Part shown: piece by piece, positions 23,046 through 24,419 of the stretch
Numbering within the stretch: position 1 is the first letter of the stretch
How the letters are laid out: each line of letters starts with the position of its first letter
Source of the DNA: Candidatus Saccharimonadota bacterium
GTDB lineage: Archaea > Nanohalarchaeota > Nanosalinia > Nanosalinales > Nanosalinaceae
Reading direction: 5' to 3'
Assembly: GCF_047555085.1 (NCBI RefSeq)
Contig: NZ_CP180230.1
Span: 930,001 to 962,000 of the forward strand
Length of the DNA stretch: 32,000 nucleotides
Position numbers and translations under genes: made by a program
Notes under the pieces: generated by a model
What the model was told of the DNA's origin: nothing
Database searches by the model: none
What the model saw: the letters and a program-made list of their open reading frames with translations, nothing else

Positions 23046-23050
23046 GTGAT
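23044..23050 (+). promoter_or_regulatory. Shine-Dalgarno AGGTGAT for the E2 gene
   Basis: AGGTGAT-CTGA-ATC parallels the pdhB arrangement GGTGAT-ATCTGA-ATG. It overlaps the pdhB stop codon. Confidence 0.55.
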
Positions 23051-23054
23051 CTGA

Positions 23055-24419
23055 ATCAAATTCGAGTTCCCTGACACCGGTGAAGGAGTAACAGAAGGCC
23101 AGTTCCTGGAATGGGAAGTCGAGGAAGGCGAAAAAGTTGAGGAAGATCAGATCATCGGAGAAGCTGAGACGGACAAAGCAGTCGTAGAGATCCCGGCACC
23201 TTCAGATGGAAAAGTTAAACATCTCAAGGCCTCTCCAGGAGATACTGTCAGCGTCGGCGACGTCATAATGGAGCTTGATACCGGAGAAGAGTCTTCAGAA
23301 GCCGAAAAAGATAATGAAAGTTCGGAATCATCCGCAGAAACTTCTGAAAAGATAGAATCGAGCGAAAAAGCACTTGAAGTAGATTCTCAGGATGCTGGAG
23401 ATGTTCTTGCTTTGCCAAGAGTCCGTAAAATGGCGGAGGAAAAAGGCATAGACTTGGCCTCGATAAAGACAGGAGAGAGAATAACAGAACAGGAGTTGCT
23501 GGATTACGAGGCCTCAGAGACAGATACAGAATCAGAAAAAGATAATTCAGTTGGAAAAGTTAATGCCTCTCCTTCTGTCAGGAGACTGGCTCGTGAAAAA
23601 GGCATATATATAGAAAAGGTAGAGGGCACCGGCAGAGGCGGAAAGATCACCAGATCGGACATAAATGATGCAGAAAGCAGAGATAGTTCTCAGGCCTCGG
23701 AAAGTCGTTCAGTGGATGAGATCAGCGGAGAGACAGAGCGCAGGCCTCTCTCCGGTATCGAGAAAGAGATCGGCAACAGGATGGAAAAATCCCGTTTCAC
23801 TGCTCCGCATGTCACTCACGTCGAGAAAGTTGACGTCAAGAGGCTTTCCGAAATGCGGGAAAGAGAGAAGGATGAAGTTGATCCACATCTGACATATCTT
23901 CCTTTCATAATGAAGGCTGCTGTATCGGCCCTGAAGGATTATCCAGAGCTTAACGCCGAGCTTGACGAGGAAAACGATGATATAGTTCTGAAGAATTTCT
24001 ACTGTTTCAACATAGCCGTCGATACTGATAGAGGCCTGATGGTTCCGAAGATAAAGAACGTTGACAGGAAAAGTATAGTTAAACTGGCGGATGAAGTCAG
24101 TGAAAAAGCCGAGAAGGCCAGGAACGGAGATTTAACACCGGAAGAGATGAGTATCGGCAGCTTTTCAATATCAAACATCGGGGCAATCGGCGGAGAGGCC
24201 TTCACACCAATCATAAACTATCCTCAGACAGCTATACTTGGTGTTGGGAAAATATCTGAGACTGCCGAAGTTTTTGAAGGAGAAGTGGAGCCCAGGATGA
24301 CTGTGAAACTTTCATTGAGTTATGATCACCGTGTTATAGACGGAGCTACAGCCGCACGTTTCATGAATAAAGTCGCTGAAAATCTTGAGAATCCTGAAAA
24401 AATGCTGATAGAACTTTAG
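23055..24419 (+). CDS. pdhC: Dihydrolipoamide acyltransferase (E2). Includes an N-terminal lipoyl domain missed by the ORF track; probable non-canonical ATC start
   Basis: In frame with the tracked ORF (23268..24419), codons 23055-23267 read IKFEFPDTGEGVTEGQFLEWEVEEGEKVEEDQIIGEAETDKAVVEIPAPSDGKVKHLKASPGDTVSVGDVIMELD. This is a complete lipoyl domain with the ETDKA lipoyl-lysine. Downstream are PSBD segments and the catalytic motif DHRVIDG. AGGTGAT lies 4 nt upstream of ATC 23055. Confidence 0.8.
   Translation: MKFEFPDTGEGVTEGQFLEWEVEEGEKVEEDQIIGEAETDKAVVEIPAPSDGKVKHLKASPGDTVSVGDVIMELDTGEESSEAEKDNESSESSAETSEKIESSEKALEVDSQDAGDVLALPRVRKMAEEKGIDLASIKTGERITEQELLDYEASETDTESEKDNSVGKVNASPSVRRLAREKGIYIEKVEGTGRGGKITRSDINDAESRDSSQASESRSVDEISGETERRPLSGIEKEIGNRMEKSRFTAPHVTHVEKVDVKRLSEMREREKDEVDPHLTYLPFIMKAAVSALKDYPELNAELDEENDDIVLKNFYCFNIAVDTDRGLMVPKIKNVDRKSIVKLADEVSEKAEKARNGDLTPEEMSIGSFSISNIGAIGGEAFTPIINYPQTAILGVGKISETAEVFEGEVEPRMTVKLSLSYDHRVIDGATAARFMNKVAENLENPEKMLIEL

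Follow-up and report, generated by a model that had tools for sequence, protein, structure and literature searches.

How a gene for a dihydrolipoamide acyltransferase (E2) can be translated in full when no ATG, GTG, or TTG codon precedes its lipoyl domain is the question raised by an E1alpha-E1beta-E2-E3 operon in the stretch of DNA analyzed here. This window covers 32,000 nucleotides (nt), bases 930001 to 962000, of a single-contig genome (G000) of 1,046,238 bp and 45.8% G+C. Its proteins are acidic, and their closest relatives in the database carry the names Candidatus Nanosalina, Nanohalobium, and Nanohalococcus, so that the organism is a nanohaloarchaeon. Default open reading frame (ORF) calling places E2 at window positions 23268 to 24419, giving a product of 383 amino acids (aa) without the lipoyl domain. 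We consider it highly likely that translation of E2 begins at ATC 23055 and yields a complete protein of 454 residues with lipoyl, peripheral-subunit-binding (PSBD), and catalytic domains, and this ATC very probably represents real initiation at an AUH codon (AUU, AUC, or AUA; ATH in DNA) directed by a Shine-Dalgarno (SD) sequence. Direct support comes from the anatomy of the frame, the complementarity of the SD, the alignment of the ATC with the starts of orthologues, selection on the lipoyl domain, and the recurrence of ATH codons at start positions.

At the junction between E1beta (pdhB-like) and E2, positions 23043 to 23060 read TAG GTG ATC TGA ATC AAA, all in the frame common to pdhB and E2, and continue with TTC GAG, after which the frame opened at ATC 23055 runs uninterrupted for its 454 codons. 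A codon-by-codon scan found no canonical start (ATG, GTG, or TTG) in frame between the TGA at 23052 to 23054 and ATG 23268, and the sole near-cognate codons in the stretch from 23055 to 23267 are ATC 23055 itself, CTG 23106, ATC at 23151, 23154, and 23190, and ATA 23265. The resulting offset from the upstream stop to the first canonical start, 71 codons, lies beyond the 99th percentile (58) for coding-like ORFs of this genome. These observations bear out a preliminary description of the locus, which had recognized the same frame with a complete lipoyl domain from 23055, the lack of a canonical start ahead of 23268, the loss of that domain from the listed ORF, and the likeness between the context of the pdhB start (GGAGGTGAT-ATCTGA-ATG) and that of E2 (AGGTGAT-CTGA-ATC). 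The E2 protein stored for this genome in a large protein collection (P0002), which is its sole stored form, also has 383 aa and lacks the Pfam domain PF00364, while the domain is present in all other 119 listed E2 homologues; the stored protein is truncated. The N terminus predicted from the ATC start is (M)KFEFPDTGEGVTEGQFLEWEVEEGEK.

Read from ATC 23055, the product is a typical E2. Its Biotin_lipoyl domain (PF00364) occupies residues 2 to 74 (E value, 4.6e-21) with the lipoyl lysine, Lys41, in an ETDKA motif, followed by two PSBD stretches (PF02817; 8.2e-22) and a 2-oxoacid_dh domain (PF00198) at residues 225 to 451 (3.8e-83) that contains SYDHRVIDGA. All the family features that were looked for were found, namely the lipoyl DKA, the PSBD, the DHRxxDG motif, an operon with E1alpha, E1beta, and E3, and a lipoate-attachment enzyme. 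Domain order and gene order are shared with the canonical Gram-positive/archaeal-type E2 operons (Thermoplasma, Haloferax, and Bacillus PdhC), from which this gene differs in its initiation codon, in having two PSBD-like stretches, and in its long acidic linkers, the last of which would be expected in a halophile. Moreover, across the 72 codons after ATC 23055, the ratio of nonsynonymous to synonymous changes (pN/pS) against seven relatives is 0.13 to 0.25, with 51 to 64 of the 72 residues identical, and this low ratio marks the lipoyl region as being under purifying selection and as translated rather than decaying. A six-frame search of the whole genome identified it as the only lipoyl/biotinyl (PF00364) domain and did not find GcvH. 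An LplA-type lipoate-protein ligase (LplA-B_cat) is encoded at genome positions 149822 to 150415, and this ligase has no substrate other than the E2 lipoyl domain.

The 16S rRNA of the genome ends at its 3' side in GGATCACCTCC, of which AGGTGATC, lying over the E1beta stop codon, is an 8-nt perfect complement. ATC 23055 stands 3 nt after AGGTGATC and 5 nt after GGTGA, and the spacing from GGTGA to ATG starts in this genome ranges from 3 to 11 nt with a mode of 6. Compared across related genomes, as the preliminary description had suggested, the junction shows that the ATC aligns with the starts of orthologues and that ATC and ATT recur there. Specifically, among E1beta-E2 junctions from 28 genomes of the same order, including G000, E2 begins at or within a few codons of the ATC-aligned position with ATG in 17, GTG in 5, and TTG in 3, and the aligned codon is ATC in G000 and in Candidatus Nanohalovita haloferacivicina (G022), which belongs to another genus, and ATT in a member of a third genus (G024). 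The Nanohalovita ATC lies behind AGGTGATCC and the ATT of G024 behind AGGTGAT with two stops (TGA and TAA) before it; in neither genome is there a canonical codon after the in-frame stop upstream of E2. A relative of the same genus as G000 (G004) has ATG at the aligned codon. The longest SD matches of the set are those of the three ATH genomes (8, 9, and 7 nt), while those of the ATG orthologues are mostly 3 to 5 nt, which is chance level; with small numbers and related genomes this comparison is descriptive, and such a difference would be expected were weak start codons compensated by strong SDs. A contig-level search with E2 as the query returned only distant bacterial or methanogen E2 genes.

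Several other accounts of the locus have to be weighed. If the C at 23057 were miscalled and the true codon were ATG, a single base change would give a canonical start, the very codon carried there by the same-genus relative, and the C is taken from the assembly. Such an error, however, would need to have recurred in three genera to account for the ATC of Nanohalovita and the ATT of G024, and further ATH start positions are found in this genome, in rpoB', the methionyl-tRNA synthetase (MetRS) gene, a giant ORF, and an exchanger gene (described below). In addition, ORFs of up to 3,759 codons are intact, so that the error rate is not high, and the MetRS ATH is also present in multi-contig, Illumina-type metagenome-assembled genomes (MAGs). 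We thus regard the error, one of the options left by the preliminary description, as very unlikely. That description also considered initiation at GTG 23046 with readthrough of the TGA. The GTG is in frame and separated from the lipoyl domain by a single stop, and readthrough or recoding of TGA 23052 would give M-I-X-I-K-F-E-F. This option found no support and is extremely improbable, considering that TGA ends 244 of the 744 long ORFs of the genome and is a normal stop, that the GTG is itself part of the SD and is not preceded by any further SD-like sequence, and that in G022 and G024 the GTG of the SD is in a different frame from E2, so that the mechanism could not be shared. Global reassignment of TGA was rejected on the same count of long ORFs. 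By contrast, AUC initiation at 23055 behind the AGGTGAT SD, which the preliminary description had preferred, gains support from both the comparative and the genome-wide evidence.

An E2 without its swinging arm cannot couple E1 to E3, and this bears on the form that standard gene callers give and that alone is stored for the genome, in which translation starts at ATG 23268, the lipoyl domain has been lost, and 23055 to 23267 is an untranslated remnant. The purifying selection and the residue identity seen upstream of this ATG, where ETDKA is kept, speak against such a remnant, as does the fact that the domain is the sole lipoyl acceptor in a genome retaining a lipoate-protein ligase; furthermore, no SD precedes this ATG, which falls within the domain's last strand. 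A start there is hence exceedingly unlikely. Hardly any more credence can be given to another near-cognate codon or to a fusion of E1beta and E2 by readthrough of both TAG and TGA. CTG 23106 is in frame, but a start there would cost the domain its first 17 residues, and the nearest SD-like run is at least 17 nt away; the fusion is allowed by the frame that E1beta and E2 share in G000, but a double readthrough is without precedent here, and the frames of the two genes differ in G022 and G024. A start at an ATG within the SD (GGTGATGG) with a subsequent +1 frameshift, conceivable for rpoB' and the giant ORF, was rejected as a general mechanism because E2 lacks such an ATG and because the frame relation of the SD GTG or ATG varies between genomes.

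Initiation at ATC 23055 could proceed as follows. On a polycistronic E1alpha-E1beta-E2-E3 mRNA, AGGTGATC would pair with the 3' end of the 16S rRNA and bring the AUC to the P site of a small subunit that has either newly arrived or just terminated on E1beta 9 nt upstream. The initiator Met-tRNA (anticodon CAU) would then pair with the first two bases of AUC, with the mismatch at the third position tolerated and offset by the extended SD, and decoding by this tRNA implies that E2 should begin with methionine. Ribosomes that have completed E1beta may start again at E2, given that the stop codon of E1beta overlaps the SD and lies only 9 nt before the AUC. Inferred in this scheme are physical initiation at the AUC, methionine as the first residue, and whatever part termination-reinitiation plays. 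An ordinary-looking initiator-like tRNA with anticodon CAU is present in the genome. ARAGORN, run without an intron search, returned only 31 tRNAs, with a single tRNA-Met (initiator-like, with A1 and a GGG/CCC anticodon stem); the elongator tRNA-Met and the other missing tRNAs are probably intron containing or split. The initiation factor aIF1 is encoded as well, and its loss as the cause of the ATH pattern was rejected on that ground.

Some points weigh against initiation at this ATC. In Sulfolobus, aIF1 disfavors noncanonical starts (cited in PMC6237735), and initiation at AUH codons in Escherichia coli reaches only ∼1 to 2% of that at AUG (10.1101/063800). The E2 spacing of 5 nt departs from the genome mode of 6 and is shared by just 9 of 197 ATG starts. 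All three E2 ATH genomes are single-contig assemblies, yet the MetRS ATH occurs in many multi-contig MAGs. Moreover, the support for the AUC start is sequence based, and the C at 23057 is an assembly-level call. Behind extended SDs, AUU and AUA starts in Staphylococcus aureus attain 10 to 30% (PMC13009471). Since aIF1 counters noncanonical starts in Sulfolobus and is encoded here, AUC probably initiates weakly, and the rate of E2 synthesis may be below that of E1.

The ATC of E2 appears not to be an oddity of one gene but part of a lineage-wide pattern, which the preliminary description had not seen. Both strands of G000 were screened for long frames whose first codon lies 4 to 9 nt after a match to GGAGGTGATCC, closely preceded by an in-frame stop and with no canonical start nearby. 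With SD matches of at least 7 nt, 39 screened frames begin with ATG, TTG, or GTG, and all three frames of more than 200 codons without a nearby canonical start begin with ATH, namely ATC (E2), ATT, and ATA; when any 5-nt SD fragment was admitted, the noise was too great for ATH enrichment to show, and only the matches of at least 7 nt were clean. In addition, all stop-to-stop frames of G000 were compared by BLASTP with the whole G022 genome (1,046,959 bp), which gave hundreds of artifacts from shadow frames and conserved leaders and left a handful of cases after a coding-potential filter.

For instance, the start position of rpoB' (genome position 735248, minus strand) is an ATT that follows AGGTGA by 6 nt. 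Counted from this ATT, Rpb2 domain 4 takes up residues 4 to 65, and the next canonical codon comes 57 codons later. In all 29 relatives read, the aligned codon is ATG, GTG, or TTG, except that in one the ATG comes one codon earlier, and the protein begins MT(D/E/K)VFLDG. The gap between rpoB'' and rpoB' is ∼70 nt longer in G000, and the additional stretch holds a mini-ORF of 14 codons (MDLKRLETVQKLQR) that ends with a TGA within the SD of rpoB'. The giant ORF of 3,759 codons (genome position 417084, plus strand) has ATA 6 nt after GGAGGTGAT; its N terminus (NFDKGLKILILALVFITAVQFGASQG) resembles a signal peptide by eye and would be missing from a product started at the next canonical codon, which comes 50 codons later, and no Pfam match was found in its first 600 residues. 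The gene for a Na+/H+ exchanger (Na_H_Exchanger plus TrkA_N) carries ATC 6 nt after AGGTGA both in G000 (815962, plus strand) and in G022 (824739, plus strand), and the sequence ISELINVLT after the ATC is conserved between the two; an ATG follows 9 codons later in G000, and no canonical codon occurs for 13 codons in G022. The near-cognate starts of G022 comprise ATC for E2, MetRS, and the exchanger and CTG for a Pit-like transporter (minus strand near 500468), this CTG lying 6 nt after GGGTGATC and the 49 codons from it offering no canonical start; in G000, the orthologous transporter gene (genome position ∼491600, minus strand) starts with ATG.

Three further genes of G000 were noted in passing. 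An mrpF-like gene of 88 codons shows the codons ATT ATT (genome positions 145574 to 145579, plus strand) behind GGGTGAAAAA, with the first canonical start as much as 64 codons away; alternatively, a GTG may be out of frame through the length of an A6 run. In a LamG-like gene (396899, plus strand), ATC stands 6 nt after AGGTG(T), and the first canonical codon comes 21 codons later, downstream of the conserved motif PLDESSGNTA. A TctA-like gene has an ATC and no SD.

A start position of the same kind is found in MetRS. In G000 (genome position 647103, plus strand), ATT lies 7 nt after AGGTGA, a weaker SD, and the class I synthetase domain begins at residue 8. Among 20 relatives of the same family that were compared, 17 lack any ATG, GTG, or TTG from the upstream stop to the strand with the conserved sequence RRVTVTSALPY and show ATT or ATC 5 to 8 nt (mostly 6 to 7 nt) after GGTG(A/G); the remaining three consist of one with ATG, one with GTC at that spacing (L075), and one that is ambiguous (L069). 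Other families of the order mostly have canonical MetRS starts. Because many of the ATH genomes are multi-contig MAGs, the MetRS ATH is not tied to one sequencing platform. Stored records read ATH as methionine for this protein: the MetRS from G000's own contig (P0122) begins MTDNRR, with ATT read as M, and the NCBI records of Candidatus Nanohalococcus occultus and Candidatus Nanohalovita begin MTEQRR (ATT) and MFIADEER (ATA), respectively. The E2 lipoyl domain has not been rescued likewise. The MetRS ATH thus looks like a weak start conserved across the family on the enzyme that charges the initiator tRNA.

Taken together, a nanohaloarchaeal family appears to place AUU, AUC, or AUA (in one case CUG) about 6 nt after GGTGA on several genes without a canonical start, E2 being one case. 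On balance, we lean somewhat toward the view that the family uses AUU, AUC, and AUA, and occasionally CUG, as working starts on SD-led cistrons, among them the essential genes for rpoB' and MetRS, and that the conservation of the MetRS AUH across most genera suggests a regulatory set-point, loosely comparable to the AUU of bacterial infC. This lineage-wide pattern, above all the conserved MetRS AUH, is a more interesting lead than the E2 start. If the pattern is true, the stringency of start-codon choice in the lineage would be relaxed or traded against SD strength, and standard gene callers would systematically truncate a set of its proteins. Metabolic reconstruction from the truncated stored E2 would wrongly score the complex as defective, and the same truncation is expected for the E2 of G022 and G024 and for the other genes with ATH starts. 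Moreover, several AUH starts in one 1-Mb genome, that of MetRS being conserved in the family, would offer a system for weighing the fidelity of aIF1 and aIF2 against SD strength and for asking whether weak starts set the expression of translation components.

ATT, ATC, and ATA are listed as possible starts in NCBI table 11, and few main, essential ORFs of bacteria naturally begin with AUH, two such starts being confirmed in E. coli. The ATC of E2 would be of the same class as the bacterial AUH starts, including AUU in infC and pcnB of E. coli and, in S. aureus, AUA in infC, AUU in cvfC1, and AUA in ccpN/citZ; in bacteria, an extended SD compensates for the weak pairing, and the codon and the SD are conserved together (PMC13009471; 10.1101/063800). 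The bacterial cases differ in that IF3 is the discriminating factor, whereas G000 is an archaeon with aIF1, aIF1A, and aIF2, and in that they affect regulators or IF3 rather than E2, rpoB', and MetRS, whose starts are predicted here from sequence. Haloferax volcanii is, like G000, a salt-adapted archaeon, in which harringtonine ribosome profiling gave ∼30% of putative alternative initiation sites as near-cognate to AUG, sites that the authors set aside as possible false positives (PMC7261190). Those are alternative or novel sites, whereas the AUH codons described here are the sole possible starts of conserved main ORFs, essential ones among them. A limited literature search found no paper on noncanonical starts in Nanohaloarchaeota or DPANN and no description of a natural AUH start on a main ORF in archaea. 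Termination-reinitiation coupling in Haloferax and E. coli operates over very short distances only and typically links genes for subunits of one complex (PMC10666635). E1beta and E2 resemble such pairs in belonging to one heteromeric complex, in the overlap of the stop with the SD, and in the 9-nt gap; in classical coupled pairs, by contrast, the two genes share 4 or 1 nt and the restart codon is AUG or GUG, and coupling in G000 would require reinitiating ribosomes to accept AUC.

The operon as a whole occupies window positions 20986 to 25840 in the order E1alpha, E1beta, E2, and E3, assigned by Pfam (Table 1). Upstream of E1alpha (window positions 20940 to 20990), a TTTTTATATA box lies ∼30 nt before the ATG and no SD is present, so that the E1alpha mRNA is probably leaderless. 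The SDs of the operon-internal genes overlap the preceding stop, with TAGGTGAT before E2 and TAGGCGAT before E3.

Table 1. Features of the E1alpha-E1beta-E2-E3 operon in the window
Feature	Position	Strand	Evidence or remark
E1 alpha (pdhA-like)	20986..22047	+	Pfam E1_dh, E 7.7e-84; first gene of the operon, ATG start
E1 beta (pdhB-like)	22077..23045	+	Pfam Transket_pyr and Transketolase_C; ATG after GGAGGTGAT plus 6 nt; stop TAG 23043-45
Shine-Dalgarno sequence AGGTGATC	23044..23051	+	8 nt complementary to the 16S 3' end; overlaps the pdhB stop
In-frame GTG ATC TGA in the pdhB-E2 gap	23046..23054	+	TGA 23052-54 closes the frame right before ATC 23055
ATC, proposed E2 initiation codon	23055..23057	+	Aligns with orthologue starts; no canonical alternative
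Full-length E2 dihydrolipoamide acyltransferase (predicted), 454 aa plus stop	23055..24419	+	Full-length orthologues in relatives, 57-69% identity
Lipoyl domain	23058..23276	+	Pfam PF00364; lipoyl-lysine codon AAA 23175-23177, ETDKA motif
Internal ATG (Met72), start according to standard ORF/gene callers	23268..23270	+	Gives the truncated 383-aa product
E3-binding (PSBD) domain, better scoring of two stretches	23559..23663	+	Pfam PF02817, residues 169-203
Acyltransferase catalytic domain	23727..24407	+	Pfam PF00198, residues 225-451; DHRVIDG motif
E3 dihydrolipoamide dehydrogenase	24431..25840	+	Pfam Pyr_redox_2 and Pyr_redox_dim; ATG 11 nt past the E2 stop

The E3 start is preceded by a weak SD-like GGCGAT. 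Directly 3' of E3 and on the same strand, a DsbA/thioredoxin-fold gene (Thioredoxin_4; E value, 5e-32) is located at window positions 25893 to 26729 (plus strand).

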